Shown one piece after another: positions 6,224 to 60,694 of a stretch of DNA of 64,000 bases. A program made the translations under genes and the position numbers. Source of the stretch: an uncultured archaeon (GTDB lineage: Archaea > Asgardarchaeota > Lokiarchaeia > Sigyniarchaeales > SOKP01). Every line of letters starts with the position of its first letter. Positions within the stretch are counted from its first letter, which is position 1. The DNA lies in contig CAZALK010000015.1 in assembly GCA_964486045.1 (NCBI GenBank), positions 77,228 through 141,227 on the forward strand, read 5' to 3'. The notes beneath the pieces are model-generated. The model did no database searches. It was not told the origin of the DNA and saw only the letters and a program-made list of their open reading frames with translations.

Positions 6224-7237
6224 ATGGGACAAAGATATGAACAAGAACTTACAGAAGAAGAGGAATTGGGGGAGGAGAAGAAAGAGAGCGTACTAAAAAA
6301 TACAGTCTCTTGGATTTTCACCAATATTAAATTCCTCCTTATTCCAGGTTATCGATTAGAAGAATTATCAAATCGGGAAAAAGACTACGAAAAATCTATA
6401 AGTAAAAGAAAATTCATTCGAAGATTAAAATCAGTCTTAACTATCTTGGGTATTGTAATTATTTTTGTAATTATAACTTTTGCCGTTTTAGGACCCTGGC
6501 TTGCTCCATACACTTTTGAGGAAGCAAATGGAGTTTTCGATAATTGGTGGGCAGCTGCATCACCAGAACATGTATTAGGAACAACTATGTTTGGACGTGA
6601 TATTTTATCAAGATTAATTTATGGGGCCAGATCTTCATTAACCATTGCTTTACCGGCAATATCATTTAGTGTTATTCTTGGTGTTATACTTGGTGTTATT
6701 TCCGGATATTACGGCGGATGGATTGATTCATTAATAATGAGAATTGCGGATGTCTTTTTTGCTTTCCCTGGAATTATTCTGGCTCTAGTCTTTGTTGCAA
6801 TTTGGGGACAAAGGATGGAGTACATAATGCTGGCTTATGGAATACTTGGCGTACCTTATTATTCACGTATAATTCGAGGATCTGTCTTACAAGCTCGAGA
6901 ATTACCCTACATTGAAGCGGCAAAAGCATCGGGGGCAGGAAATTGGAGGATTATGTTTAAACATATACTTCCAAATACTATTCAACCCATTATAATTTCA
7001 TTTACATTCGATATCGGTGGCATCATTTTAAGCTTGGCAGGTCTTAGCTTTTTGGGGTATAGTGATTATAGGCTAATTGAATGGGGAAACGACATTAGTG
7101 CTGCTAGGCTTCATCTATATGATGCTCCATGGACAGCTCTTTGGCCCGGATTTATGATCTTAATAACTGTACTAGGTTTTATGTTAGTCGGTGATGGATT
7201 AAGAGATGCCCTAGATCCGAGATTAAGAAACTTGTAG
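6224..7237 (+). CDS. dppC: Peptide ABC transporter permease
   Basis: HVLGT..GRD, YIEAAKASGA, HILPN, GDGLRDALDPR. Confidence 0.95.
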   Translation: MGQRYEQELTEEEELGEEKKESVLKNTVSWIFTNIKFLLIPGYRLEELSNREKDYEKSISKRKFIRRLKSVLTILGIVIIFVIITFAVLGPWLAPYTFEEANGVFDNWWAAASPEHVLGTTMFGRDILSRLIYGARSSLTIALPAISFSVILGVILGVISGYYGGWIDSLIMRIADVFFAFPGIILALVFVAIWGQRMEYIMLAYGILGVPYYSRIIRGSVLQARELPYIEAAKASGAGNWRIMFKHILPNTIQPIIISFTFDIGGIILSLAGLSFLGYSDYRLIEWGNDISAARLHLYDAPWTALWPGFMILITVLGFMLVGDGLRDALDPRLRNL

Positions 7238-7336
7238 AACGTTATCAATATATTACCGAGTCAATAGTTATTACTGGTTGAAAAAGAAAATAGTGAATCT
7301 GGTTAAAAAAGAAATAGATTTATTGAAAATAAGAAA

Positions 7337-8572
7337 ATGAATCAAACGAAATTAGATGTAGAAAAAGAGTCAAGAGACCTGCTTGAAATTAAAGATCTTA
7401 AAACAAATTTCTATACAGAAGAAGGGATTGTTAAAGCAGTAGACGGTGTTTCATTTGATATATACCAAGATGAGATCCTTGGCCTTGTTGGTGAAACGGG
7501 GTGCGGAAAATCAGTCACAGCACTTTCTATTTTACGCCTTGTGAGAGCACCAGGAAAAATAATCAACGGGACCATAAAGTTTAATGGTGTCAATTTGCTG
7601 GAGTTATCTGAAGGACAAATGAGGGAATATCGTGGCAACAACATAACTATGATATTTCAGGATCCACTAAATTCACTTAATCCAGTAATGTCAGTTGGAA
7701 AACAAATATCGGAAGTATTTTTATTACATCAGGAAGAAGAACTTAAGAAAATCATTGATAAACGAAATTCAGAGCGAAAAATACAGAAACTAGAAATAAA
7801 AGAACTAAAAAGGGAATTTAAAATAAATAAAGACCGTTTAACAGAAGATGAAAGGAGCGATTTTAGAGTAAAAATAAAAGATCTAAAAGCCAAAATACCT
7901 AAAAAACCTTACCTGAAAAATATTGCATGGGAAAGATCGGAAGATATTATTAAAGAAGTAGGAATTGCAGATGCAGCAGGTATCCTAAAAAGATATCCGC
8001 ATGAGTTAAGTGGGGGTATGAGACAACGTGTAATGATTTCAATGGCACTATCTTGTAACCCCCAACTGCTAATCGCAGATGAACCTACTACTGCCTTGGA
8101 TGTAACTATCCAAGCTCAGATTCTTGATTTAATGAAAATTTTGAAAAAGAAATTTAAAACATCAATTCTAATGATAACTCATGATTTAGGTATAATTGCG
8201 GATTTGTGTGATCGGGTAGCTGTCATGTATAGTGGAAACATTGTTGAATATGCAACGGTAAAAGATTTATTTAAAAATCCTCGGCACCCCTACACGAAAG
8301 GACTTATTGGTGCAATTCCAAGCATAGAAAAGAAAGATCAAAAATTACTTACTATTCGAGGAATGGTACCAAACTTGATTTTTCCCCCGTCTGGCTGCAG
8401 ATTCCACCCAAGGTGTGATTATCGATTGGAAATCTGTAATAAAATAAGACCTAAATGGATTGAAATCGCAAAGAAATACTTAGTTGCTTGCCACCTTTTC
8501 GATCCTGATCATAAAAATTCCCCAAAACATGAGTGGGGTAAAGCGGAAGATAAAGAATCTTATAAAATATAA
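7337..8572 (+). CDS. dppD: Peptide ABC transporter ATP-binding protein with coiled-coil insert
   Basis: Walker A GETGCGKS, YPHELSGGMRQR, DEPT, HPY, GCRFHPRC. Confidence 0.95.
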   Translation: MNQTKLDVEKESRDLLEIKDLKTNFYTEEGIVKAVDGVSFDIYQDEILGLVGETGCGKSVTALSILRLVRAPGKIINGTIKFNGVNLLELSEGQMREYRGNNITMIFQDPLNSLNPVMSVGKQISEVFLLHQEEELKKIIDKRNSERKIQKLEIKELKREFKINKDRLTEDERSDFRVKIKDLKAKIPKKPYLKNIAWERSEDIIKEVGIADAAGILKRYPHELSGGMRQRVMISMALSCNPQLLIADEPTTALDVTIQAQILDLMKILKKKFKTSILMITHDLGIIADLCDRVAVMYSGNIVEYATVKDLFKNPRHPYTKGLIGAIPSIEKKDQKLLTIRGMVPNLIFPPSGCRFHPRCDYRLEICNKIRPKWIEIAKKYLVACHLFDPDHKNSPKHEWGKAEDKESYKI

Positions 8573-8613
8573 CAATTAAAATTGGTAGACTAGTTGAAAG
8601 GAAATAAAAAAAA

Positions 8614-9960
8614 ATGATTAACCATAACGACGAAATAAACAATTCAATGGCAGAAAATATAAAAACTTCGAGTAAAAAGAAAGAAGTTATTCTAGCCGTT
8701 AAAGATCTCAAGACATATTTCCCCATATATGGTGGAATTTTTAAGCGGACAATTGGATATGTCAAGGCAGTAAATGGGGTCACTTTTGACCTTTATAAAG
8801 GAGAAACACTTGGTTTAGTTGGAGAGAGTGGTTGCGGAAAAACTACTATCGGGAACAGTATATTAAATCTTGTACCAGCTACCTCAGGAAAAATTTTCTA
8901 TAAAGGACATAATATCGTATTAGGAAAGACTGAAAGAAAAGAAAAAACTCAAAAATTACGAGAAGAAAATGATTTAAAGAATATTATATTAATTCCAGTA
9001 ATTCGTTTTGCTCTAATATTTTTAGGTGCATTCCTCAGACGAACAAAAACAAACTTAAAGCAAATCTATCAAACCACAAAGAATTATTTAGCTAAATTAC
9101 ACCCATCTTTAAGGGATGCATTTACTGCTATGATATCTTTCTCAAAACGAAATTATCTTAATATAAGTAGAATAAAGCGCGGATATAATAAAGAATTACG
9201 AAGGAAAATTCAAATTGTGTTTCAAGATCCTGATTCTTCATTAAATCCACGTTGGAAAACAGTTAATATTATAGGAGAACCGCTTAGAATTCTCTTAGGA
9301 ATGAGAAAAAGGAGAAAAATTCGTAGACGTGTCCTTGAAATTCTAGAAACCGTTTCAATGAAGATGGAGCACTTGGATAGATATCCACATGAATTTTCTG
9401 GTGGTCAAAAACAAAGAATTGTAATAGGTAGAGCTCTAGCACCTAATCCTGAAATTGTGATTTTAGACGAACCAACTTCCGCTCTAGATGTGTCCGTTCA
9501 AGCCCAAATTTTAAATTTATTAAAAGACCTCCAAGAAAAATTTGATTTTTCCTATTTATTTATTACTCATGATTTAAGCGTAATACAACATATAGGAGAT
9601 AGAATTGTAGTAATGTACCTTGGTAAATTCGTAGAGACTGGAAACATTGATGATGTATTTTACGATCCTAAACATCCATATACCAGAGCACTATTGTCAG
9701 CTCGACCTACATTCGATCCTACAACAAGACAAACCAGAATTATATTAGAGGGTGATGTACCTAGCCCAATTAATCCACCTATTGGATGTGCTTTTCACCC
9801 TAGATGCCCAGAAAAAGATAAACATATTGGATGTGATGTAGACGAACCTAGGAAAATTCATATCGGGGGTGACCATTACATTTATTGCCTACCATACAAG
9901 CATGAACAAGGCTCCTATGAAGGAAAGACAGTTATCTCAGATACTTGGAGAAAATCTTAA
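8614..9960 (+). CDS. dppF: Peptide ABC transporter ATP-binding protein with ~90-aa insert
   Basis: GESGCGKT, YPHEFSGGQKQR, DEPTSALDVSVQAQ, GCAFHPRC. Confidence 0.95.
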   Translation: MINHNDEINNSMAENIKTSSKKKEVILAVKDLKTYFPIYGGIFKRTIGYVKAVNGVTFDLYKGETLGLVGESGCGKTTIGNSILNLVPATSGKIFYKGHNIVLGKTERKEKTQKLREENDLKNIILIPVIRFALIFLGAFLRRTKTNLKQIYQTTKNYLAKLHPSLRDAFTAMISFSKRNYLNISRIKRGYNKELRRKIQIVFQDPDSSLNPRWKTVNIIGEPLRILLGMRKRRKIRRRVLEILETVSMKMEHLDRYPHEFSGGQKQRIVIGRALAPNPEIVILDEPTSALDVSVQAQILNLLKDLQEKFDFSYLFITHDLSVIQHIGDRIVVMYLGKFVETGNIDDVFYDPKHPYTRALLSARPTFDPTTRQTRIILEGDVPSPINPPIGCAFHPRCPEKDKHIGCDVDEPRKIHIGGDHYIYCLPYKHEQGSYEGKTVISDTWRKS

Positions 9961-10181
9961 TTCTATCCTAAATGGCATAAATTTTAATGTCTTGTACTAA
10001 ATTTGTATAAAAATTATTTTAAACAACTTGGATTTATTTTGATCCCTCCTCAAATATTGAAGATATCTTTTTATTTCACTCTATTTTTATTTTTTACCTA
10101 AGATTTACGGAACATTTATTGAAATTTATCGATTAATTAATGAAAATAAAAAAGTTAAAGGATTATGATTTTAAATAGATA

Positions 10182-11354
10182 ATGACTTCAAAAAATTCCC
10201 AAATATTTGTATTAAAAACTTCACCTGAAACAATCTTAGAAGATTATAAAGATTTAATGCATTTAGCAAATTATGAACGATTTTATAATAAGGATAGTAA
10301 GACTATTATCAAACTCAATTTAAGCTGGTCAAAATTCTTCCCTGCTTGCTCAAGCCCTCCTTGGCAGGTAGAGGGTATCTTAAAAACGATGACGGATGAT
10401 GGGTACGATCCACAAAGACTTTTCCCCTCAGAAAACCGTACGGTTGTCACTAATATCGAGCGAGGCTTAAAAGGTAATAAGTGGGGTCCAATTATTAAAA
10501 AATATAATACCAGGTTTATCCCCTTAACACGAATACCCTTTGTTCCATATGAGTCTTTAAGACGTAAATTTCTTAGCTTAAAAAATCAAAAATTGCATGT
10601 TTTAGATTCTGAAATATTTCCAGAGGGTTTTAAAATTCCAAAATTTTATGTTGGTAAACAGATTATTCATGCACCCACCATCAAAACACATGGTCATACT
10701 GGAGCTATAGGGGGTAGTTTAAATCACACTAAAGGAGAATTAAAGCATGGTGGTATCACATGCGCTATGAAAAATGCATTTGGTGGACTTTTGACCAAAA
10801 GAAGGCATTTTTCACATCAATTTATGTCAGAAGTACTCGTTGATCTCTTAATTATTCAAAAACAAATTCATCCGAGCGTAATGGCAATCGTAGACGGAAC
10901 AGTTTGCGGAGATGGTGCTGGTCCAAGAACCATGATACCTCGAATAAAAAATTATTTAATAGCAGGTTATGATCAAGTTGCGATTGATACCGTTATCGCT
11001 AAAATGCTAGGTTTTCAGCCATTAAAATTACCTGCAATAAAATTAGCAAACGATGAAGGATTAGGTTGCGGTGATTTTGATCAAATTGAAATAATAGGAA
11101 AAGATATCTCAAGTATCAATTGGAATTTTAAAGTTAAACGTAGTTTAGTTATATGGGGTGATCAAATGGTAAGAAAAGGCTCGCTAAAATTTATTAATCC
11201 ACTTCTTAAGAATAAGATCTTTTTTATGGGACCGATTTTAGGTTCTTTAATTTATCATGATTTGTTTTGGTATCCAATAATAGGAAAGCGTAGAATAAAG
11301 AATTTTATGAAAACTAAATGGGGGGATGTATTTAAAAATTATCCAGAGAGTTAA
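10182..11354 (+). CDS. DUF362 domain (Fe-S binding) protein
   Basis: KLNLSW, PTIKTH, AMKNAFG, DG...GAGP and DQVAID motifs. Confidence 0.85.
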   Translation: MTSKNSQIFVLKTSPETILEDYKDLMHLANYERFYNKDSKTIIKLNLSWSKFFPACSSPPWQVEGILKTMTDDGYDPQRLFPSENRTVVTNIERGLKGNKWGPIIKKYNTRFIPLTRIPFVPYESLRRKFLSLKNQKLHVLDSEIFPEGFKIPKFYVGKQIIHAPTIKTHGHTGAIGGSLNHTKGELKHGGITCAMKNAFGGLLTKRRHFSHQFMSEVLVDLLIIQKQIHPSVMAIVDGTVCGDGAGPRTMIPRIKNYLIAGYDQVAIDTVIAKMLGFQPLKLPAIKLANDEGLGCGDFDQIEIIGKDISSINWNFKVKRSLVIWGDQMVRKGSLKFINPLLKNKIFFMGPILGSLIYHDLFWYPIIGKRRIKNFMKTKWGDVFKNYPES

Positions 11355-14982: not shown

Positions 14983-16098
14983 TTATGGCTTAGCATCTCT
15001 TTTATTTATTATTACCTCAATTTTCCGTGTCAGTGCTAGACTTAATCTACCCACTTGTACTTTTAATGAGGCCTTTCTTTCAAATTTCTTATAAATTTCC
15101 CTTAATATAAATCCCATTGAAAAAAATGCTGTGGCTGCAAAGACCCAAATGCTAATCAAATCTAGTTTGTTTAAGAAAAGAAAATACAATAAGTTATGAG
15201 CTAGGTAAATTGTGAGAGAATAGTACGAGTAGTAGAATATTAATTTATAGCTCCTTTTTGTTCTAAGAATATTAAATTTTTCGATCGTTAATAAGATAGA
15301 AAGCAAAAATAAATCAATTCCAATCGAATATACTACCCATGACAAACTTTCCCTTATCAGAAATTGAGGAAACTGGATAAGAACACCAGACATTATCATA
15401 AAAATTCCAATTAAAGTTGTGGGAATTAACAATCTTTTTTTAAAGACTGAATTATTATTCTCTTCCTTATTCATAGAACTAGTCTCATGGATTAAATCTC
15501 CTATAACAGTTCCGATTATGAAAAATGGGAAAAATATTAGAATCGGATCCTGGTGGATAATATTATACAGTATATGGAATATTAAACCAATAATATTCGA
15601 TTCACCTTGAAATGGTAATAACCATGAAACAATAATAAAATGGACAAATAAAATTGCAAATGCAATGAAGATCCTAAAATATTTGTGAATCTTTAGTAGT
15701 GGCCAAGTTAAAAAAATTGAAACCGCCGAGGTTAATAACACAAACCACGTCCAAATCATAGTTGGATCTTTTAGTACAATCGCGGTTGGTATGTTGTAAA
15801 TAATGGCGATTATGAAAATAAAGAATGCTCGAAGAAAATATGAATTTTTCACCATTCTATAATTAAATTCTTTCGATTCTTTTACTTCATTTAATCTACG
15901 TCTATGTGAAATAGTAATACTAACCCCTGAAATGAATAAAAAACCTGAGGCACCAATAGGGTCTATTATCATTATCACTACCGTATGTAGCCAACTGTAC
16001 TCAGTCTTTAACCACCAATCAATTAAATGAGCTAACACCATCCATCCCATACAAGCTCCACGAAATATATCAATACTCCTTAATCTGCTAGGTTTCAT
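14983..16098 (-). CDS. DUF1624 / HGSNAT-like membrane acyltransferase
   Basis: RLRSIDIFRG...H, FLFISG and SLTIYLAH motifs; multi-TM. Confidence 0.8.
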   Translation of the reverse strand: MKPSRLRSIDIFRGACMGWMVLAHLIDWWLKTEYSWLHTVVIMIIDPIGASGFLFISGVSITISHRRRLNEVKESKEFNYRMVKNSYFLRAFFIFIIAIIYNIPTAIVLKDPTMIWTWFVLLTSAVSIFLTWPLLKIHKYFRIFIAFAILFVHFIIVSWLLPFQGESNIIGLIFHILYNIIHQDPILIFFPFFIIGTVIGDLIHETSSMNKEENNNSVFKKRLLIPTTLIGIFMIMSGVLIQFPQFLIRESLSWVVYSIGIDLFLLSILLTIEKFNILRTKRSYKLIFYYSYYSLTIYLAHNLLYFLFLNKLDLISIWVFAATAFFSMGFILREIYKKFERKASLKVQVGRLSLALTRKIEVIINKRDAKP

Positions 16099-16200
16099 GT
16101 TTAAAAAGTTTTAATTATTGACTGTTTTTTGACCTCCAGTAAAATCAGTCTATTAGGAAGATTTAAAGCTGAATATAATTAATATTGTTCCTTTAATACC

Positions 16201-17061
16201 TCAAATTGGCTTAATTCTCAATCCATTAATCAATTCGGAAGATTTACTTAGTGAAATGTCATTATCTAATAGTTTTTTCAAAATTTCTTTCAAAATTAAT
16301 GTTTCATCCTGAGCTTCATTTAAATCATATGCTTCATTTTTTTGGTAGTTTATATTCTTAGATTTATTCTGTTTTATAATTTGGTAATAATTTTGAGAAT
16401 TAACTTCAATACCTTTACGCGTTGCAATTAATAATGCAGAAATTTCATGCTTGGTCTTTACCCGTTTTCCTTTATCTTGGATTTTAATTTTAGAAGTTTT
16501 TGATTCATCAATTAAATAAACTTTAATAGATTTTCGGTTTTTAAAAGTTTCATAAACTCGCTTTAATAAATCAATAGTTACTGGTATGATCCCCCTACCA
16601 AATTTGAAGGTAAAACGCATAGGTTTTGAACCTTCCTTTTGAAAACAAAGAATATAATCATTAATAATTTCAAGAAGTTTTTCTTTTTTATAGATTGTGT
16701 GAGATTGTAAATAAAAATCATCCAAAAAAACGACAATTCCAATTTGGCTTGTACCTGGATCAATAGAAAATGTTAAATTTGAATAACTCTCCTTAAATTC
16801 TATTTTATATGCCGCTAATATTTTTAAAATATAATGGTGAAAATTTTCATTCTTGTCGTACGGAAGAATTTTCAATTTTTTATAGTTATCGTCAAATTTA
16901 TGAATTTCTTCAGATGTTGTAAGAACTATCGAAGGAAGAGTATGGAATTTTCTTTGTACAGTTAGAATTTTGAAATTAACATTCAATCGAATCAATTCTC
17001 TGTTTAACTTATAGAAAAAATTTAAATTTTCAGTGAAGATGTATAATAATTTCTTAATCAT
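16201..17061 (-). CDS. RNase H-fold (YqgF-like) domain protein
   Basis: SIDPGTSQIG, LIDESKTS and HEISALLIA motifs. Confidence 0.65.
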   Translation of the reverse strand: MIKKLLYIFTENLNFFYKLNRELIRLNVNFKILTVQRKFHTLPSIVLTTSEEIHKFDDNYKKLKILPYDKNENFHHYILKILAAYKIEFKESYSNLTFSIDPGTSQIGIVVFLDDFYLQSHTIYKKEKLLEIINDYILCFQKEGSKPMRFTFKFGRGIIPVTIDLLKRVYETFKNRKSIKVYLIDESKTSKIKIQDKGKRVKTKHEISALLIATRKGIEVNSQNYYQIIKQNKSKNINYQKNEAYDLNEAQDETLILKEILKKLLDNDISLSKSSELINGLRIKPI

Positions 17062-17142
17062 GATTAACTGTCGTTAAATATATTATTATACAAAGGGAAA
17101 AAAAGTCTTTTGTAATACAAATGAGATATGTAGCAACCAAAC

Positions 17143-17164
17143 GTAATACAATTGAAAGCAAGAA
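17143..17164 (+). repeat. Direct repeat copy 1 (GTAATACAATTGAAAGCAAGAA)
   Basis: Identical 22-mer at 19926-19947; similarity extends 5' to TAGCAA at 17131 and 19913. Confidence 0.85.
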
Positions 17165-17191
17165 TTTGAATATAATAAATCTCTTTAAAAA

Positions 17192-17554
17192 TTAATCTTG
17201 AAAGTTTTTTAATAGAAACTTAAGGGCTTTAATTCCTTTATCTGATATTTTATACTTTATATATCCATCTTCTTTTCTCTTTCTATCACTTTTATCAATT
17301 AAATCATATCTCAAAAAGCATTTTATATATCTGAAAACCGAACTCCTTTTCATTATAGACATTTTAGAAATTTCTTCAATTAGGTTTTTACATAAAAGTT
17401 GAGGCTGTTCATTTATGAATTTAAGTAAAGTGATTCCTTTCTCGTTTAAAAAATTAATAATCGGAAGTCGATTATCAAACCTGAACGTCAATGATTTTCT
17501 CATAACTAAAATATGGAGGTATTTTATAAAAATATATCTCAAAATTTGACACAT
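17192..17554 (-). CDS. Winged-helix transcription regulator
   Basis: KRSSVFRYIKCFLRYDLI...YKISDKG wHTH pattern; likely start ATG 17503. Confidence 0.7.
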   Translation of the reverse strand: MCQILRYIFIKYLHILVMRKSLTFRFDNRLPIINFLNEKGITLLKFINEQPQLLCKNLIEEISKMSIMKRSSVFRYIKCFLRYDLIDKSDRKRKEDGYIKYKISDKGIKALKFLLKNFQD

Positions 17555-17560
17555 GTCAAA
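17545..17560. promoter_or_regulatory. Inverted repeat, putative operator (TTTGACA-CA-TGTCAAA)
   Basis: Perfect 7-bp arms in the divergent region upstream of the wHTH gene's likely start. Confidence 0.4.
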
Positions 17561-17790
17561 AAAATGTACATCTCTGAAATTTGTCGAGGAATCTAAAACA
17601 TCTAATTTTATATTTTATTTTCAAATTTGATTTATATGGTTCACCCAATATTAACATAAAATTATCTAATAAGGGAAAATCCAAAATTTTGGGTAGAGTT
17701 TATATTTTTTAAAAATAATAATTATTATTAAATAATTTTAAATAAAATAATTGTTTACATATTATTTAGCATCTAAGAGATGGAGAGAGA

Positions 17791-18096
17791 ATGGAAGTAT
17801 ATACACCTGCTTTTATAAAGATTAGGGAATTACTTCAAGTAGAACTACTAAAATATATTGGCGAAAATATTGCCGTTAATTCCAATGATATAAATGAATT
17901 TATAATGGTTCTTAAAGAGAAAAGTAAACATGATAACAAAAATTTTAATTTAATTGAATTTACATATAGTTACCCATATAGTTCTCAAGTTCAAGATTTA
18001 TTAGTTGATTTAGTCAGACGATGTATCGTAAAGCAAACAAGAGATGGATATCAATTAACTAGCCATGGTCTAAGCTTGATTGGAAATGATATATGA
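17791..18096 (+). CDS. Small winged-helix protein (YwgA/SocA-like)
   Basis: F..SYPYSSQVQDLLVDL and YQLTSHG; coupled to the HD gene by an ATGA overlap. Confidence 0.6.
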   Translation: MEVYTPAFIKIRELLQVELLKYIGENIAVNSNDINEFIMVLKEKSKHDNKNFNLIEFTYSYPYSSQVQDLLVDLVRRCIVKQTRDGYQLTSHGLSLIGNDI

Positions 18097-19808
18097 ACCT
18101 CAATAGCAAAATTAATGATATTATTAATTTTATTTTTGATAAATTTGGAATGACAGAAGATTTTCCAGAGAAACCCAAATTACATATTCATGATAATGTT
18201 TTTGGAACCTTAACTTTTACTGATTATGAGCGAAAGGTTGTTAATTCTCCACTTTTACAGAGATTGACTCAAATAACACAAATGGGATTAGCCAATTTTG
18301 TATATCCTGGTGCTGTTCATAATAGATTTTCTCATAGTCTAGGGGTGTCTCATATTTCTGCAAAAATTTATCGTCAATTAATGGAATCAGATACTGGACG
18401 TGACAAAACAAATATAAAAGAAGACATTAATACTTTGAAGTTAGCGGGATTACTTCATGATATTGGGCATTGTCCGTTCTCCCATGTTTCTGATGATGTT
18501 ATCAAAACTTCAACTCATTTTAATGATATCCCTAAAGCTAATATTGATTCTGAGATTTGCTCTCGAACAGGTGAGCAAGGTGATAACAAAAATATCCATG
18601 AGTTTTTAGGGTTTCACCTTTTGAAATCTAATCGAGTAGAAAATTTAATAAATACAATTTATAAATGTGTCCCATTTGATTTTGAATTAATTCCTTTATG
18701 TGTTACAGGCAATTTATTACCTTTTAATAATGAAAATGGTCTATGTCACCAAATTTTCGATGATAAATATAAGACATTACTAATAAAAATAATTAATGGA
18801 TTTTCTGATTCAGATAAAATTGATTATATATTACGAGATTCTCAATTTTCGGGATTACCACTCCCTGCAGATATCGATAGATTAATTTCATTTTTTGAAA
18901 TTATATCTCATCAAGATACTTATGAATTAGGCGTATCTGAGAAAGGTGCAAGAGCTTTTAATTTATTACTTCAATCAAAAACAAAGATGTTTCCAACTGT
19001 TTATCAACATCACACTACATTAGCTTGTGAATCTCTATTAGTATTTGGAATAATTGATGCTATGCGAAATGTAAATGAAGCCACAGTAAATATTGATACT
19101 GAAAAATGGCATCCTATCGAATGTGGCGTCGATCTTCTTTATTATACTGATGGGTCATTATTAGATTATTTAAGAATAATAGATAATCCAATTTCTAATG
19201 ATGTTGTAAATAGACTTTTAAATAGAAGACATTATAGGACAATTAGACGTATATTTACTTGGGAACTCAGAAATGAGTTAATAGTGTCAAGAAAGGTTTT
19301 TAGAGAAGACTTAAAAAACAGTGGATTATTTTCAGACTTCCAAAAACTATTAGATGAGGGAAAGATGGGACAATATACTGTAGAAATGAATTTATCTTAT
19401 ATGAAATATGAAGCTATAAGAGAAAAAAGAATTGATGAATTTTATAAAGAATTTGATTCAAGAGATAAAATGCTTAGTTTTAAGAGAAAGATGATCAATA
19501 AGGAACCTTATATTTTAAAGAAATTGAATAAAAATTTTCCCAATGTTGATGAAGACACATTAATAGATTATACTATATGTGTCCGAATTGCTGGAACTCT
19601 ATCTGACAAACCATATCAACAACCGTATGTAAAGAGATTAAACAGGTTTAAGAATGAAACCGAATTATTATCATTATCGCAGATGGGATTTGTAGAGCCT
19701 CAAGCATTAGATTATCAACACATCACTTTCTATTCACTACCTAAGTTTTCAGACATATTAAGACCACATATAAATGATTATTTACAAGAAAAATTATTTA
19801 CTAATTAG
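18093..19808 (+). CDS. HD-superfamily phosphohydrolase (COG1078; YwfO/SAMHD1-like dNTPase)
   Basis: QRL..I.Q.G, VYPGAVHNRFSHSLG, LHDIGHCPFSH, HE, DSDKIDYILRD, VYQH. Confidence 0.92.
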   Translation: MNLNSKINDIINFIFDKFGMTEDFPEKPKLHIHDNVFGTLTFTDYERKVVNSPLLQRLTQITQMGLANFVYPGAVHNRFSHSLGVSHISAKIYRQLMESDTGRDKTNIKEDINTLKLAGLLHDIGHCPFSHVSDDVIKTSTHFNDIPKANIDSEICSRTGEQGDNKNIHEFLGFHLLKSNRVENLINTIYKCVPFDFELIPLCVTGNLLPFNNENGLCHQIFDDKYKTLLIKIINGFSDSDKIDYILRDSQFSGLPLPADIDRLISFFEIISHQDTYELGVSEKGARAFNLLLQSKTKMFPTVYQHHTTLACESLLVFGIIDAMRNVNEATVNIDTEKWHPIECGVDLLYYTDGSLLDYLRIIDNPISNDVVNRLLNRRHYRTIRRIFTWELRNELIVSRKVFREDLKNSGLFSDFQKLLDEGKMGQYTVEMNLSYMKYEAIREKRIDEFYKEFDSRDKMLSFKRKMINKEPYILKKLNKNFPNVDEDTLIDYTICVRIAGTLSDKPYQQPYVKRLNRFKNETELLSLSQMGFVEPQALDYQHITFYSLPKFSDILRPHINDYLQEKLFTN

Positions 19809-19839
19809 TTAGATTAAAAAGAGTAAAATAATAATCAAC

Positions 19840-19850
19840 TTTTTTTTTTT
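19840..19850 (+). terminator. Oligo-T terminator candidate after the HD gene
   Basis: T11 run about 30 nt after the stop codon. Confidence 0.4.
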
Positions 19851-19925
19851 AATTTTCTGAACTTATAAAGTGTAGTATCATCTCTAAAAATAAAGCACTT
19901 TTTATACGTAAATAGCAATTGAAAT

Positions 19926-19947
19926 GTAATACAATTGAAAGCAAGAA
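19926..19947 (+). repeat. Direct repeat copy 2 (GTAATACAATTGAAAGCAAGAA)
   Basis: Identical to 17143-17164. Confidence 0.85.
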
Positions 19948-20178
19948 GAACAGGTGAATTATTTTTTCTTTATAATTTTCTCAAAGTGCCTATTCTTGAG
20001 CAAAGGAAATGAATCCCAGAAAATATAAAAGATAAAAATAAATGGAAATTATTAAAATTAAGAACCCTATTCATTATTAATCTTTAAATACGAATTGTAA
20101 ATAAATTATAAAATATTAACAGTAGTATTGACGAACTTCTCAAAGATATGTTAGAAAACTTAAGAGGATTATAAAAAG

Positions 20179-20391
20179 ATGCTAGAATGTGACTTTTGTA
20201 ACAAGAATCGGGTTGTTACAATAAAATTAGAATTATTTAACTCAGAAATTGATGAGGATCCAGAAGATTTAGATTCAAAAAGAATTTGCATGATATGTCT
20301 TGAAAAAAGAAATTGGAAAATAGATATAAGGGAAGTTTTACAATTTGAAATAGAAGATTCAGTAGATTTTCCAGAGGATTTTGAAGGGTGA
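20179..20391 (+). CDS. Small CxxC-CxxC zinc-finger protein
   Basis: CDFC...CMIC; upstream GAGG; first gene of the ParB operon. Confidence 0.6.
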   Translation: MLECDFCNKNRVVTIKLELFNSEIDEDPEDLDSKRICMICLEKRNWKIDIREVLQFEIEDSVDFPEDFEG

Positions 20392-20398
20392 ATAAAAA

Positions 20399-21469
20399 AT
20401 GAAAATAAAAATCGCAAATATGGATGTTGGTAAATTTGCCATAAGAGAGAAATTTGAAGATGAACATGTGAAAGAAATTATAGAAAGTTTTAAAGTAGAT
20501 GGACAATGGAATCCAATAATTGTCAGACCAATAGAAGATGGAAGATATGAACTCATTGCAGGGCATTATCGTTTACAAGCGGGTAAAGAATTGGGTTGGG
20601 AAGAAATTGAAGCTACTATTAAAGATTTAGCAGATGATGATGCAGATATATTATCTCTAAAGACTAATTTATTGCATTCTGACATGACAGCCACAGAAAA
20701 AGGAAAAGTTATAAATAAAATTATAACAAAATATGGAATTACCCAAACAGATTTAGCAAAAAAACTGGGCATAAGTGAATCTTCAATTAGTAGATTCTTA
20801 ACTCTGGCACTATCATTACATGAAGATGTTTCAACTGCTTTAAGTAATGGTGAAATTAACTATGCTGTTGCTGTGATCATAGGGAGTTTCAAATTGAAAG
20901 ACCAACCAAAATTCTTGGAAATAATCTTGGAACGGAAAATCTCATCCCCAGAAGATGCAAGTAAATTAAAAGCGAAATTTCTTAACGATACAATCTATAC
21001 AATCGGTTATCAGGGAAAAAAGTCAATTGACTTTATTAAAATACTCCAAAATAATGAAGTAAAAGTTCTTATTGATGTTAGATATTCAGCTAAATCAACC
21101 ATGCTACCAGAGTTCAGTAAAGATGTCTTAAAACGAGATTTAGAACGAAATAAAATAAAATATCGACATTATCCAGAATTGGGAATTCCTTTTGTAATTC
21201 AAGCTCCCTATAAAGATGGGAAACTTTCAGTTGATTGTTTAAAACAATGGTATAAATGGCAAGTAGAAGATAGCGATAAAGTTGATTTCGATAGTGTTAT
21301 GAAATACTTAAAAGATTCAGGACGACCTGCATTAATGTGTATGGAAAAATATGCTAAAAAAATGAGAGATCAGAAATATTCATGCCATAGAGATATTTTA
21401 GCTAATTTAATTCTAAACTATACAACTATAGATTCCTTACTTAAATTTAAGCATAGGATTGATCTCTAA
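20399..21469 (+). CDS. ParB-like + HTH + DUF488 fusion protein
   Basis: PIIVRP..YELIAGHYRLQA (ParB), TQTDLAKKLGISESSISR (HTH), IYTIGY/LIDVR/LMCME/SCHR (DUF488). Confidence 0.85.
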   Translation: MKIKIANMDVGKFAIREKFEDEHVKEIIESFKVDGQWNPIIVRPIEDGRYELIAGHYRLQAGKELGWEEIEATIKDLADDDADILSLKTNLLHSDMTATEKGKVINKIITKYGITQTDLAKKLGISESSISRFLTLALSLHEDVSTALSNGEINYAVAVIIGSFKLKDQPKFLEIILERKISSPEDASKLKAKFLNDTIYTIGYQGKKSIDFIKILQNNEVKVLIDVRYSAKSTMLPEFSKDVLKRDLERNKIKYRHYPELGIPFVIQAPYKDGKLSVDCLKQWYKWQVEDSDKVDFDSVMKYLKDSGRPALMCMEKYAKKMRDQKYSCHRDILANLILNYTTIDSLLKFKHRIDL

Positions 21470-21555
21470 GTGTAATGCTAAGGATGATATATACGTTGAT
21501 GTAAGAATTTTATAAATAATAATTTAGAATATAGATTAGTAAATGGTGATTTTGT

Positions 21556-22365
21556 ATGTTAATAAAAGATTTAATTATTTTAGGGAGGGCAGTTCCAGTT
21601 TTATTAAAAGATCAGCGTAAAACAATCTGTACTGCTGGTTATTCTCACGAATTAGGTTTTGTTAGAATATATCCTACATTTTACTATGAGAATATTCATC
21701 TTTGGGATATAGTTTCTATTGATGTAAAAAAAGACACACGTGATTCTAGAAGCGAATCATGGAAAAAACTTGCGGATTCTGAATTTAAAAAAATTGGTAC
21801 ATTAAAAAATGACAGAGAAGAAAAGGAAACTTTATTGGAATCAATTTATCAAAATAAATGTACACATGATTTGAATGAGGAGAATAGAAGTTTAGCCATT
21901 ATTAAACCTCAAATTGTAGATTGCAATTTTAAAGAAGTTTCTGCTACTGAAGATGGAAAACTTGTCACAATGAGTTTAATGGATTTCTTTACAAATAAAA
22001 AAAAAACAAATAGGAAACCTCTGCTGGTAAAAACAAATTTTGATGTTATTCCCTATATACGTTATAGATGTTGTGTTAACTGTAGAACTAAAGCGCCTCA
22101 TAATCAACAGATATTAGAATGGGGAGGATACCAATGGATTCAGAAACACCCTGATGAAAAAGAGCAATTATGGGAAAATTATCGAATTTTTGATGAGGAA
22201 TGGTATAAATATTTTTTCATTGGCAATTTACGGGATCAAAGAACTACATGGTTGATAATTAACATTTTAAGAGGAAAGAAAAATGAAGGTATTGAGAGAG
22301 AGAATGGAAAAATTTTGTACCAATCTAAAGAGGAAAGCAAAATAACTCAGAAAAAATTATTTTAA
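21556..22365 (+). CDS. Putative OB-fold nucleic-acid-binding protein of the family often found beside DUF488
   Basis: TICTAG..GFVRIYP, DSRSESW, SLAIIKP, C..C...H, EWG and FFIGN motifs. Confidence 0.6.
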   Translation: MLIKDLIILGRAVPVLLKDQRKTICTAGYSHELGFVRIYPTFYYENIHLWDIVSIDVKKDTRDSRSESWKKLADSEFKKIGTLKNDREEKETLLESIYQNKCTHDLNEENRSLAIIKPQIVDCNFKEVSATEDGKLVTMSLMDFFTNKKKTNRKPLLVKTNFDVIPYIRYRCCVNCRTKAPHNQQILEWGGYQWIQKHPDEKEQLWENYRIFDEEWYKYFFIGNLRDQRTTWLIINILRGKKNEGIERENGKILYQSKEESKITQKKLF

Positions 22366-22470
22366 AAAGATTAATTTAAGAGTATTTTTCATTTTCTGTA
22401 AAAATATATAATAATTTATTTCTCAAATTATAATTATTAATATTAGATAAAATTAATAATTTGTAATTAG

Positions 22471-23160
22471 ATGCTATTTCCAGCCTCAAACTTAAATAAA
22501 ATTTTCAAAAGCTTCTCTTTGAATAAAGGGATTATCTCAATTTGGGGTGATTTTGGTGTTGGAAAAACTACATTTGCTCTTCAAACTGCAATTTACACTG
22601 TTAGAAATGCAAATAAAATCATTTATATATATTCTAAGCCAAATTTTCCGGCTGAAAAAATAAGGAACTTGGTAAGAGGATCAAGAGAAAGTCTAAATAA
22701 TATTATCTTCATACAAACAGAGAATTTTGAGGATGTATATAATATCGTGTTTAATTTAGAATTTTTAATCCTAAATTCTCTCAATATAACAAAAGAAAAA
22801 TTTGAATTAATTGTGATAGATTCCTTAACAGGTCTTTATCGATTAGCGTTAAATAAAGCGAAAAAAGAACAAAATTATAACTTAAATTATACTTTAAACC
22901 AAATTCTAGCAAATCTCTTAAATATAAATATTTCATACGACATTGAAATTCTGATAGTAAATGAGAAGGTAAACATGTTGATCAACAATCAGATTATTGA
23001 AATACAAAGTGGTGGGAAAGTTATGGATTATTGGGTTCCAACAAATATCAAAATTGAACGAACGAAAATTTTAAAAGAGAGAAGATTTCTACTAACGAAA
23101 CGTCCTGAGATTCAAAATATGGAATTTAAATCTAGATTAACTGAAAATGGTTTTCAGTGA
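22471..23160 (+). CDS. RadB-like RecA-family ATPase
   Basis: Walker A GDFGVGKT, Walker B IVIDS, SGGKVMDYW. Confidence 0.75.
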   Translation: MLFPASNLNKIFKSFSLNKGIISIWGDFGVGKTTFALQTAIYTVRNANKIIYIYSKPNFPAEKIRNLVRGSRESLNNIIFIQTENFEDVYNIVFNLEFLILNSLNITKEKFELIVIDSLTGLYRLALNKAKKEQNYNLNYTLNQILANLLNINISYDIEILIVNEKVNMLINNQIIEIQSGGKVMDYWVPTNIKIERTKILKERRFLLTKRPEIQNMEFKSRLTENGFQ

Positions 23161-23271
23161 ATATCTCAAAAAATATATTCCATATTTTCATAAAAATTCC
23201 TTTTTTATACTTTTTCACATTAATATTTGTGCAATTACAATATTTAATTTAATTTTTAGTTATATATTATA

Positions 23272-24525
23272 GTGATGGATAAAAAAGAAGAATTTATGAA
23301 ACATGCCTTAAGTACAATTAAAGAAGGAAATACCGAATTCTATATACATAATGTTGACAAGGACTCCATTCCTTCAAAATCAATGACCGTCTTCTATAAT
23401 CAGAAAATGGAGATAAATAGAGATATTTCTAATTTAGCAATTATCGCTTATAGTAAAATTTATAATCAGGATTCTCTCATAATCGTAGATTCTATGGCTG
23501 CTTCAGGAATAAGCTCAATCAGAATGTTAAAAGAATGCGCTAATATTAAAAAAATCTACATCAATGACATAAACCCCGTTGCGGTAGATCTCATTCATAA
23601 AAATCTATTTTTGAATAATCTATTTGATCAACCATCTTATATAAAAGTGTCAAGAAAGGATGCAAATTATTTATTTGCAGAAATTACACAAAATTACTTT
23701 ACCCATCTGTATGATAATCCAGAAAAACCAAATATCATCTCAATTGATCCATTTGGTACTCCAAATTTATATTTAGATGCTGCTTTTAAAGCTATCCAAA
23801 ATAAAGATGGATTATTATGTGTAACAGCAACTGATACTCCAGTTTTGTTTGGAATAAGGTCAAAAAGTTGCATTCGAAAATATATGTCAAAACCTCTCCA
23901 CACCGAGTATTGTAAGGAGATTGGAGCCCGAATTTTAATCCATTTTATATCTAGAATTGCGAATGTGAATAATATGGGGATAATTCCACTTCTAACATTT
24001 TATTCTTCACATTTCTTAAGGATTTTTTGTCTAACTTTTAAAAATAAAGATGAGATCTCAAAATCCTTTAAAAATTATGGTTTTATAGTCCATTGTAATA
24101 AATGTGGATATCGCTCAAGTTTTCAGGATAACATTTTAGAATTACCGGGGAATTGTCCTCTTTGCAAGGAAAGTAGAAAAATGGAGTATGCTGGTCCTCT
24201 CTGGATTAATGATATTCATGATTTGGAATTTTTAAATGAAATTGTCGGTTTAAATAATGAATTACAATATACCAACAAAAAAAGAATTGACAAATTGCTA
24301 AATATCATCAGGGAAGAAGTCAAAAATCCAATTTCCTTTTACAATATTCATAAATTGAGCAGAATTTTAAAAATTTCAAACACCCCAAAATTAAATACAA
24401 TAATCGAAACCATTAGGAAAAAAAAGTATAGTGCTTCTAAAACTCATTTTGATTTTTTATCAATTAAAACAAATATGAATATAGTGGGGATTAAAGAGAC
24501 TCTATTAGAATTGAATGATAAATAG
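23272..24525 (+). CDS. trm1: tRNA (guanine-N2)-dimethyltransferase
   Basis: VFYN..M..NRD, DSMAASG, NDIN, IDPFG, TATD, CxxC/CxxC, AGPLW, THF. Confidence 0.95.
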   Translation: MMDKKEEFMKHALSTIKEGNTEFYIHNVDKDSIPSKSMTVFYNQKMEINRDISNLAIIAYSKIYNQDSLIIVDSMAASGISSIRMLKECANIKKIYINDINPVAVDLIHKNLFLNNLFDQPSYIKVSRKDANYLFAEITQNYFTHLYDNPEKPNIISIDPFGTPNLYLDAAFKAIQNKDGLLCVTATDTPVLFGIRSKSCIRKYMSKPLHTEYCKEIGARILIHFISRIANVNNMGIIPLLTFYSSHFLRIFCLTFKNKDEISKSFKNYGFIVHCNKCGYRSSFQDNILELPGNCPLCKESRKMEYAGPLWINDIHDLEFLNEIVGLNNELQYTNKKRIDKLLNIIREEVKNPISFYNIHKLSRILKISNTPKLNTIIETIRKKKYSASKTHFDFLSIKTNMNIVGIKETLLELNDK

Positions 24526-60601: not shown

Positions 60602-60694
60602 GGCCCTTGACGGTTAGAGTGGTCTCTGACGCTGGGCTTCAAACCCAGCTATCCTGCGAAGGGATAGGGGTTCGATTCCCCTCGAGGGCCGCCA
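60602..60694 (+). tRNA. selC: tRNA-Sec (anticodon UCA)
   Basis: 9-bp acceptor GGCCCTTGA/TCGAGGGCC; 7-bp D stem with TGGT loop; 6-bp anticodon stem with loop CTTCAAA; long variable arm; 4-bp T stem; G73 and encoded CCA. Confidence 0.96.

Follow-up and report, generated by a model that had tools for sequence, protein, structure and literature searches.

Why does a block of six accessory genes stand between two otherwise conserved neighbors in a Lokiarchaeia genome, does it form a single system, and what might it do? The block occupies positions 17100-22380 of a 64,000-nucleotide (nt) stretch of DNA (hereafter, the window) from an uncultured archaeon (Asgardarchaeota; Lokiarchaeia; Sigyniarchaeales; SOKP01; GenBank assembly GCA_964486045.1, contig CAZALK010000015.1, positions 77,228 to 141,227 of the forward strand). 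All six open reading frames (ORFs) lie where the initial annotation of the window had placed them, between two flanking genes. We show that the block is a strain-specific insertion and not a chance cluster. Where the initial annotation had proposed one composite antiviral or DNA-damage-response system, comparison with related loci resolves the island into two independent modules that are found separately elsewhere. A role against viruses or other invading DNA appears to be the best single explanation for these modules.

The block is an insertion at the 5′ end of a conserved gene

The six genes, ∼5.4 kb in all, separate a gene for a 286-amino-acid (aa) protein from a gene for a radB-like ATPase. 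The features that define the insertion are as follows.

16201..17061, minus strand: left flank, a conserved Asgard-specific gene for a 286-aa protein with a DPG motif; its 5′ end is the insertion target
17021..17060, no strand assigned: left 40-nt direct repeat, formed by codons 1-13 of the functional 286-aa gene
22386..22425, no strand assigned: right 40-nt direct repeat, the remnant of a decayed 286-aa gene 5′ end; its distance from the radB-like gene is the ancestral one
22471..23160, plus strand: right flank, a conserved radB-like RecA-family ATPase gene (TIGR02237 at 94 bits, below the cutoff; Rad51 Pfam match)

Protein searches of 40 relatives located both flanking genes, which are divergent, and the gap between them measures 5409 bp here versus 44-60 bp in 21 genomes of the same genus. 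Empty sites in congeners are exemplified by genome G022 (contig C168, at 3535/3589) and genome G012 (contig C25, at 44939/44990), and the pair is likewise contiguous in further families of the order. Orthologues of the 286-aa protein occur in 37 of 41 relatives, every time adjoining the radB-like gene, and radB-like orthologues occur in 39 of the 41. Because the two genes are divergent and only ∼50 bp apart across the order (several families), they are suggested to be a conserved functional pair with one common promoter region. The 286-aa protein falls into Asgard-only Atlas clusters (Promethearchaeota and Thorarchaeota), the only lead, a weak one, being to DUF460. Neither Pfam nor NCBIfam gave a match, and the RNase-H or "YqgF-like" label that it had been given could not be verified.

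The right-hand spacer aligns base for base with the junctions of eight relatives, as far as the relic of the 286-aa gene's 5′ end. On the minus strand, this relic (22386-22427) reads TTG AGA AAT AAA TTA TTA TAT ATT TTT ACA GAA AAT, which translates as TTG-R-N-K-L-L-Y-I-F-T-E-N, and it then diverges up to a stop. It retains the TTG AGA AAT AAA start of the relatives, continues into the ancestral intergenic sequence, and lies 44 nt from the ATG of the radB-like gene, matching the ancestral spacing. The functional start of the 286-aa gene, at 17021-17061, reads ATG ATT AAG AAA TTA TTA TAC ATC TTC ACT GAA AAT. The two 40-nt copies that flank the island are identical at 31 of 40 positions and thus form an imperfect direct repeat; none of 1000 composition-matched shuffles reached this value (mean, 24.6; maximum, 30). 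Taken together, the relic, the repeat, and the ancestral spacing place the entry point after approximately codon 13 of the 286-aa gene. In the manner of integrative elements, the island either duplicated ∼40 nt of its target or brought with it a sequence that imitates the start of the 286-aa gene.

The contiguity of the flanks in relatives and the significant bounding direct repeat are our reasons for calling the block an insertion. The initial annotation had raised the possibility that the same six genes are conserved at this locus in most relatives; they are not, and since the flanks are contiguous there, the island is accessory and strain specific. Further, no gene closely orthologous to the HD, OB, or fusion genes described below was found in the 40 relatives, except for one fusion (55% identity) and one fragment. 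The island resembles an att-flanked integrative element in having target direct repeats at both ends, but such elements carry an integrase or recombinase inside or beside them, and this is not so for the island. In agreement with the initial annotation, domain searches found no recombinase or integrase domain in the six genes, nor any on the contig, and the five tyrosine-recombinase genes of this genome are all on other contigs. The sole tRNA gene found in the window is a tRNA-SeC at 60602-60694 (plus strand).

Module A: a predicted dNTPase with a small partner and a divergent putative regulator

The three left-hand genes of the island constitute module A.

17192..17554, minus strand: divergent gene for a 120-aa winged helix-turn-helix (wHTH)-like putative regulator, an assignment that draws on weak matches only (HTH_IclR at E 0.015; homologues match the F-93 wHTH at E 0.003)
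17791..18096, plus strand: gene for a 101-aa small partner, with no Pfam match and a weak Atlas lead to a wHTH protein (TubR, score 0.88)
18093..19808, plus strand: gene for a 571-aa SAMHD1/EF1143-type HD phosphohydrolase (HD and HD_assoc_2 domains), a predicted deoxynucleoside triphosphate (dNTP) triphosphohydrolase

The 101-aa and HD genes overlap by 4 nt (ATGA) and are translationally coupled. The initial domain calls for the HD protein, as for the fusion and OB proteins of module B, were essentially right. The HD protein matches PF01966 at 38.9 bits and PF19276 at 25.5 bits; it aligns with PDB 2q14 at 1.6e-28 and, over residues 32-324, with the SAMHD1 core at 6e-20, the bacterial structures 2q14 and 2hek being the better fit. 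Its catalytic motifs, H..HD..D and DxDK.DY..RD, are intact, and its alignment with SAMHD1, 2q14, and 2hek shows that HNRFSHSLGV, LLHDIGHCPFSH, SDSDKIDYILRDS, and VYQHH are retained. It therefore shares with the SAMHD1, EF1143, and TT1383 HD dNTPases (COG1078) both the HD plus HD_assoc_2 architecture and the metal-binding and catalytic motifs, but differs from them in that its clade is distinct and exclusively Asgard, with members of ∼560 aa that carry a C-terminal extension of ∼250 aa.

Full-length relatives of the HD protein (44-68% identity, ∼560 aa) fall into about 21 clusters, and those with a named source come from Lokiarchaeota or Helarchaeota. In a quick FastTree analysis of 87 sequences, the Asgard relatives form one Asgard-only clade, which comprises 22 clusters. 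Two plant SAMHD1-like proteins that ranked next in the search sit elsewhere in this tree on long branches, and a special link between the Asgard and eukaryotic HD proteins is therefore not supported. In other families of the order, every genome searched has an HD homologue of 420-490 aa. The 40 relatives have no HD homologues other than distant ones, which are 35-42% identical across the N-terminal third, and even these occur in only 3 of 24 congeners. No SAMHD1-like gene besides that of the island was detected in this genome, and the ordinary dNTPase seems to have been lost from the genus.

Module A recurs as a unit on other Asgard contigs. All three genes have homologues at locus L039 (identities of 32%, 52%, and 51% for the 120-aa, 101-aa, and HD proteins, respectively) and at L037/38 (37% for the 120-aa protein and 50% for the HD protein, with the 101-aa homologue, at 51%, being a truncated ORF with 35 aa aligned). 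At L040, the 101-aa and HD homologues are 42% and 46% identical, respectively, and no 120-aa homologue was found. In L039 and L037/38, the 120-aa homologue is oriented divergently to the HD pair, and the 101-aa homologue lies directly upstream of the HD gene in L039 and L040. Neighbors of module A in L037-L040 include a PemK toxin, DUF4145, HTH_34, a PLD-type nuclease, HerA (PADLOC, 2.5e-50), an ISL3 transposase, and two ParB_N genes.

Among known systems, module A is most readily compared with two groups. With the dNTP-depleting defences (the dGTPase of Tal et al. 2022 and Clover CloA/CloB, PMC12265719), it shares a dNTPase gene with a dedicated accessory gene in a variable region; it differs in that the HD partner is a 101-aa protein with no assigned family and not a nucleotidyltransferase. 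With PanAT (Kurata et al. 2022, PMC8832971), it shares a small upstream gene that is coupled to a SAMHD1-like HD gene and moves with it as a unit. Unlike PanAT, however, module A includes a third, divergent wHTH gene as a conserved member, and Pfam profiles, that of Panacea/DUF4065 (PF13274) included, gave no match at E ≤ 10 to the 101-aa protein or to its homologues from L039 and L040, a sequence-level result that a remote structural relation could escape.

Module B: a ParB-HTH-DUF488 fusion linked to a double-OB protein

The right-hand genes of the island are the following.

20179..20391, plus strand: gene for a zinc-ribbon-like 70-aa protein with two CxxC pairs (CxxC...CxxC), an acidic tail, and no Pfam match, 7 nt ahead of the fusion gene
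20399..21469, plus strand: gene for a 356-aa fusion of a ParB-CTPase N-domain, a ParB helix-turn-helix (HTH), and DUF488 (Pfam, TIGR00180)
21556..22365, plus strand: gene for a 269-aa double-OB-fold partner (AlphaFold2 model with a pLDDT of 86.9; PDC-M19B match)

The first of these was rejected as a third member of module B: the 70-aa zinc-finger gene has no homologue in any related locus, and other module B loci contain an unrelated small wHTH-like gene where it stands here. Module B thus consists of the fusion and OB genes, which lie on one strand with an 86-nt gap.

The fusion protein matches ParB_N (PF02195) at 61.6 bits, HTH_ParB (PF17762) at 40.7 bits, DUF488 at 57.7 bits, and TIGR00180 at 115.4 bits (cutoff, 58.45); against Noc and Spo0J in the PDB, it scores E values of 1e-21 to 1e-20. 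Its family comprises >258 clusters from Asgard archaea and Bathyarchaeia, and in vitro CTP binding has been reported for one archaeal DUF488-HTH-ParB fusion (bioRxiv 10.1101/2025.10.10.680097). As in the CTP-dependent clamps of the ParB/Noc type (PDB 7ng0, 1vz0, and 6sdk), a ParB N-domain and an HTH are present and align (fusion residues 2-186, E 1e-21 to Noc). The fusion differs from these clamps in (i) lacking the C-terminal dimerization domain, with DUF488 in its place; (ii) having a box II that reads GHYRLQA in the translation, and not GERRxRA; and (iii) having no ParA-type ATPase alongside it among the six island genes or the flanks. In addition, a role of archaeal ParB-HTH proteins in segregation is considered unlikely.

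The model of the DUF488 domain (pLDDT of 95.1) resembles Cys-based protein tyrosine phosphatases (PTPs) and dual-specificity phosphatases (DSPs). Foldseek matched it to SsoPTP at a probability of 0.99 with a TM-score of 0.44, VIA gave a PTP-like match at a Z of 8.0 (114 residues aligned), and many DSP and RNA 5′-phosphatase structures matched at VIA Z values of 5.5-7.2. In the numbering of the domain, D37, R39, C140, H141, and R142 are invariant, and C125 and E127 are nearly so; counted along the whole fusion protein, C125, C140, H141, and R142 are Cys314, Cys329, His330, and Arg331, respectively. Literature searches covering PDC-M19, PF04343, and the rhodanese-phosphatase superfamily turned up nothing on the chemistry of DUF488.

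The 269-aa OB protein has 62 homologues; it has no Pfam family, and no membership in the RPA or SSB families was found at the sequence level. The likeness to RPA/SSB-type proteins lies in its model, which predicts OB folds of the nucleic-acid-binding type. Residues 1-81 align with TEBP at a Z of 9.5 (root-mean-square deviation of 2.0 over 74 residues) and with archaeal RPA at 8.9, PriB being within the range of 9.5-8.8; the whole protein aligns with RPA70-AB at a Z of 8.0 (167 residues) and with Teb1-AB at a Foldseek value of 5e-4, and it also matches HIN-200. In the family alignment, C25, C172, C176, and H182 are invariant or nearly so, and a D-x-R-x-E-S-W-K motif is evident; the conserved Cys and His residues may form a Zn site.

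A gene of the OB family adjoins a DUF488 gene in every locus that we read (L003, L005-L009, L020-L022, L024-L030, L041, and L042), with three OB paralogues in L020 and two in L041. The distant partners in L003 and L005-L009 were detected with a family hidden Markov model (HMM) and had been missed by a single-sequence search; an earlier indication that M19B is absent from all 40 relatives was accordingly discarded as a sensitivity artefact of that search. Across 151 sampled genomes of the phylum, DUF488 was found in 43 and the OB family in 8, and 8 of the 10 OB matches lie ≤1 kb from a DUF488 match in a long ORF (302-518 aa).

A close relative of the pair, at 6258-10517 of a Logan ERR6430833 contig (L020), encodes a fusion protein 89% identical and an OB protein 72% identical to those of the island; the two genes are 2.4 kb apart on opposite strands, with two diverged OB paralogues between them and with a split Mokosh MkoA (1e-61 and 3e-94) and a PLD nuclease alongside. 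Neighbors at other loci include AbiLi/AbiLii (1e-70 and 1e-14) and PDC-S60 at L029, AAA_5/DUF2357 at L021, and insertion sequence (IS) transposases and MazE at the thaumarchaeal loci. Parts of both modules are found elsewhere next to known defence genes and transposases. Pattern-limited scans of IMG/VR yielded a single contig for the OB family and no contig for the HD protein. The matching contig (L051; IMGVR_UViG_3300031651_000355) is from a tailed virus, carries tail tube and HK97 gp10-like genes, and breaks off within an OB-family (M19B-like) gene, a fragment of which occupies 1-285 and is either virus borne or at a provirus-host junction.

Module B as a distant archaeal variant of PDC-M19

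Although the initial annotation had recognized no named system in the island, the fusion and OB pair matches the PADLOC candidate PDC-M19. The fusion protein aligns with PDC-M19A (PDLC04505) at 3.5e-24 and 83.8 bits, over profile positions 140-287 of 294, which correspond to the DUF488 half only, and the OB protein aligns with PDC-M19B (PDLC04508) at 1.3e-16 and 58.8 bits (residues 6-241 versus profile positions 6-261 of 269). Moreover, L029 contains a bona fide PDC-M19 pair (403 and 384 bits, with M19A covered at positions 1-294) that is homologous to both module B proteins, and the family HMM links the OB protein to the M19B of L029 at 2e-52. PDC-M19 was predicted by "guilt-by-embedding" in BREX, DISARM, and type I restriction-modification loci (Payne et al., bioRxiv 10.1101/2024.01.29.577857). 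Like module B, it consists of two adjacent genes, for a DUF488 protein and a partner of ∼270 aa. Module B differs in that (i) the N-terminal ∼190 residues of the fusion comprise a ParB-CTPase domain and a ParB HTH, replacing the N-terminal region of bacterial M19A; (ii) its proteins are only ∼28-31% identical to the bacterial pair, and its carriers are archaeal (Asgard and Bathyarchaeia); and (iii) the island has the extra, nonconserved zinc-finger gene upstream. On these profile matches, we classify module B as a distant archaeal variant of PDC-M19.

Internal repeats and spacers

Two further repeats lie inside the island.

17139..17164, plus strand: left 26-nt repeat, with a 22-nt core from 17143 (17143-17164)
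19922..20004, plus strand: right 26-nt repeat with a 79-nt element (core, 19926-19947; 79-nt element, 19926-20004)

The initial annotation had noted repeats and palindromes in the spacers. The repeats are real: the two 26-nt copies (17139-17164 and 19922-19947) are identical at 25 of 26 positions and bracket the 120-aa, 101-aa, and HD genes, that is, module A. The palindromes did not hold up as operators, being mostly low-complexity, AT-rich sequences not clearly above chance. One specific-looking palindrome, TTTGACA-N2-TGTCAAA at 17545-17560, lies in the divergent promoter region, overlapping the codon at which the 120-aa gene starts, and is a candidate autoregulatory operator.

The 22-nt core, GTAAWACAATTGAAAGCAAGAR, occurs in 6 copies in this genome, versus 0 for a reversed control; the copies outside the window are at C13:132806, at C14:135923 (minus strand), and at C22:35261 and 35914. 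There are 0 copies in 53 other species of the genus, which rules out a genus-wide regulatory motif. The 79-nt element is 94% identical to copies on C22 (two) and C14, and the left arm of ∼50 nt upstream of the core copy at 19926 resembles the C13 copy. The flanks shared around the common core thus vary from copy to copy, a mosaic that suggests recombination there and would fit either a small mobile element or a site of recombination. The C22 pair represents a 653-bp tandem duplication with identical flanks.

The 26-nt repeat was also considered as a CRISPR repeat, since it ends in ATTGAAAG, and was rejected: the only array found in this genome, on C32, has an unrelated repeat. That array (C32:∼450-1990) contains at least 20 repeats (CGGTACACCCCCACGTGTGTGGGGACAAC) and is interrupted by an assembly gap; its repeat is GC rich in a genome of ∼30% GC. 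No Rfam family matches positions 16000-23500.

Weighing an anti-invader role against the alternatives

We favor an anti-invader role for both modules, with a confidence slightly above even, because of their patchy distribution, their mobility, their defence and toxin neighbors, the homology of module B to PDC-M19, and the membership of the HD protein in the SAMHD1 family. dNTPases have been proven to act as antiviral effectors in both animals and bacteria (PMC12265719 and references therein).

Several observations weigh against this assignment. First, the island HD protein is not of the validated anti-phage dGTPase type: it scores 35.8 bits against the family model NF041026 (cutoff, 400), and the PADLOC dGTPase model matches at 45 bits over profile positions 46-123 of 395 only (∼80 residues), so that, unlike Dgt-type anti-phage dGTPases, it fails the curated models. 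HD dNTPases also serve ordinary dNTP homeostasis. Second, the top VIA match of the DUF488 domain is an unrelated methylase N-domain (Z of 8.8), the PTP-like match being middling, and the domain has no CX5R motif. Third, short stand-alone DUF488 proteins without a detected OB partner are common in the 151 phylum genomes, and the DUF488 domain is therefore not specific to defence. Fourth, the fusion and OB pair of L042 (Bathyarchaeia) is located among the housekeeping genes ArgRS, ERCC4, and ABCE1, and thaumarchaeal pairs are located near RadA and PolB. Fifth, the defence neighborhoods are anecdotal, amounting to ∼10 loci without a statistical test of enrichment. Finally, PDC-M19 is itself one of 145 explicitly untested candidates (bioRxiv 10.1101/2024.01.29.577857).

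Three alternatives were weighed. The island could be the relic of an integrated plasmid or virus, whose genes serve the maintenance and replication of that element, with ParB acting in partition or silencing, the OB protein resembling an SSB, the dNTPase tuning nucleotide pools, and wHTH proteins acting as regulators. A direct repeat located in the 5′ end of a gene is indeed typical of integrative elements; ParB homologues and SSBs are common in plasmids and viruses, and orphan ParBs often reside on mobile elements; DUF488 is enriched in Methanoperedens plasmids (PMC9674854); and one tailed-virus contig in IMG/VR contains the OB-family fragment. However, the island spans only 5.4 kb and has no integrase, replication, capsid, or ParA gene, its two units are found separately in many chromosomal contexts, and its ParB carries an enzyme domain in place of the canonical C-terminal dimerization domain. 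With viral matches in the pattern-limited scans confined to that one contig for the OB family and absent for the HD protein, we consider such a relic unlikely.

We are equally doubtful that the modules are selfish toxin-antitoxin cassettes, in which the HD enzyme would be a toxin restrained by the 101-aa protein and DUF488 would be neutralized by the OB protein, so that both would persist by post-segregational killing with no dedicated antiviral role. The coupling of the 101-aa gene to the HD gene and the conservation of this pair fit such an arrangement, as do the PemK and MazE genes that adjoin the modules and the patchy distribution; the absence of a Panacea/DUF4065 signal at E ≤ 10 in the 101-aa protein and its two homologues does not. 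The order and orientation of the module B genes are variable, to the extent of 2.4 kb and opposite strands in L020, which is unusual for a tight toxin-antitoxin pair. Toxin-antitoxin behavior would, moreover, be compatible with defence by abortive infection.

Accessory DNA-repair or damage-response genes acting on host DNA, through end processing by DUF488 with an ssDNA (single-stranded DNA)-binding OB protein and through dNTP balancing, are less probable again: the island does lie between a radB-like RecA-family gene and the 286-aa gene, the latter with a putative nuclease fold, other pairs are near RadA, PolB, and ERCC4, and OB/RPA-like and phosphatase-like folds are common in repair. However, the insertion came to lie beside radB by accident, given that all relatives have the two flanks side by side and that related modules occur in unrelated contexts. 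Carriers are also very scattered (8 of 151 genomes have the OB family), and known defence systems lie alongside elsewhere.

Proposed mode of action

With an anti-invader role as the preferred reading, a working model can be outlined, in which each biochemical activity, like the antiviral role itself, is a prediction. The block would have entered the 5′ end of the 286-aa gene by recombination, duplicating ∼40 nt of its target and leaving no integrase behind. In module A, the divergent 120-aa wHTH protein probably acts as a repressor that controls transcription of the module, and the co-translated 101-aa partner probably binds the HD enzyme and restrains or regulates it; once released, the HD dNTPase would deplete dNTPs and thereby stall viral DNA replication. 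In module B, a ParB-type, CTP-gated DNA-binding module is fused to a putative enzyme domain with a phosphatase-like fold. The double-OB protein probably binds ssDNA and may sense or hold the exposed ssDNA of an invader, and the ParB module would bring the DUF488 effector onto the invader DNA.

A more far-reaching version can be formulated, in which both modules are working Asgard antiviral systems that were captured as cassettes by site-specific recombination at the lineage-specific 22-nt core, defence cassettes being stacked as on an integron-like platform but with no resident integrase, and in which module B represents a new mechanism, namely, a CTP-gated ParB clamp that moves a phosphatase-like DUF488 effector along DNA and is controlled by a double-OB protein that senses ssDNA. 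We regard this full version as a long shot, less probable than any of the three alternatives above; its integron-like component stays weak because the C22 core copies are a tandem duplication and not a cassette array.

Implications for Asgard immunity

Asgard archaea are the prokaryotes most closely related to eukaryotes, and their immunity has hardly been explored by experiment. The locus described here is a cleanly delimited example, in which the empty-site sequence is known from relatives and two compact, separately testable modules lie side by side, and its value is as an experimental target and not as a new category. Module A, with a predicted dNTPase of the SAMHD1 family, a small partner, and a regulator of its own, bears on how nucleotide-depletion immunity is controlled. 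Solving the module B pair would assign a function to the very widespread DUF488 domain as well as to PDC-M19. The insertion scar and the genome-specific 22-nt repeat, in turn, provide a handle on how Asgard archaea acquire cargo genes without a local integrase.

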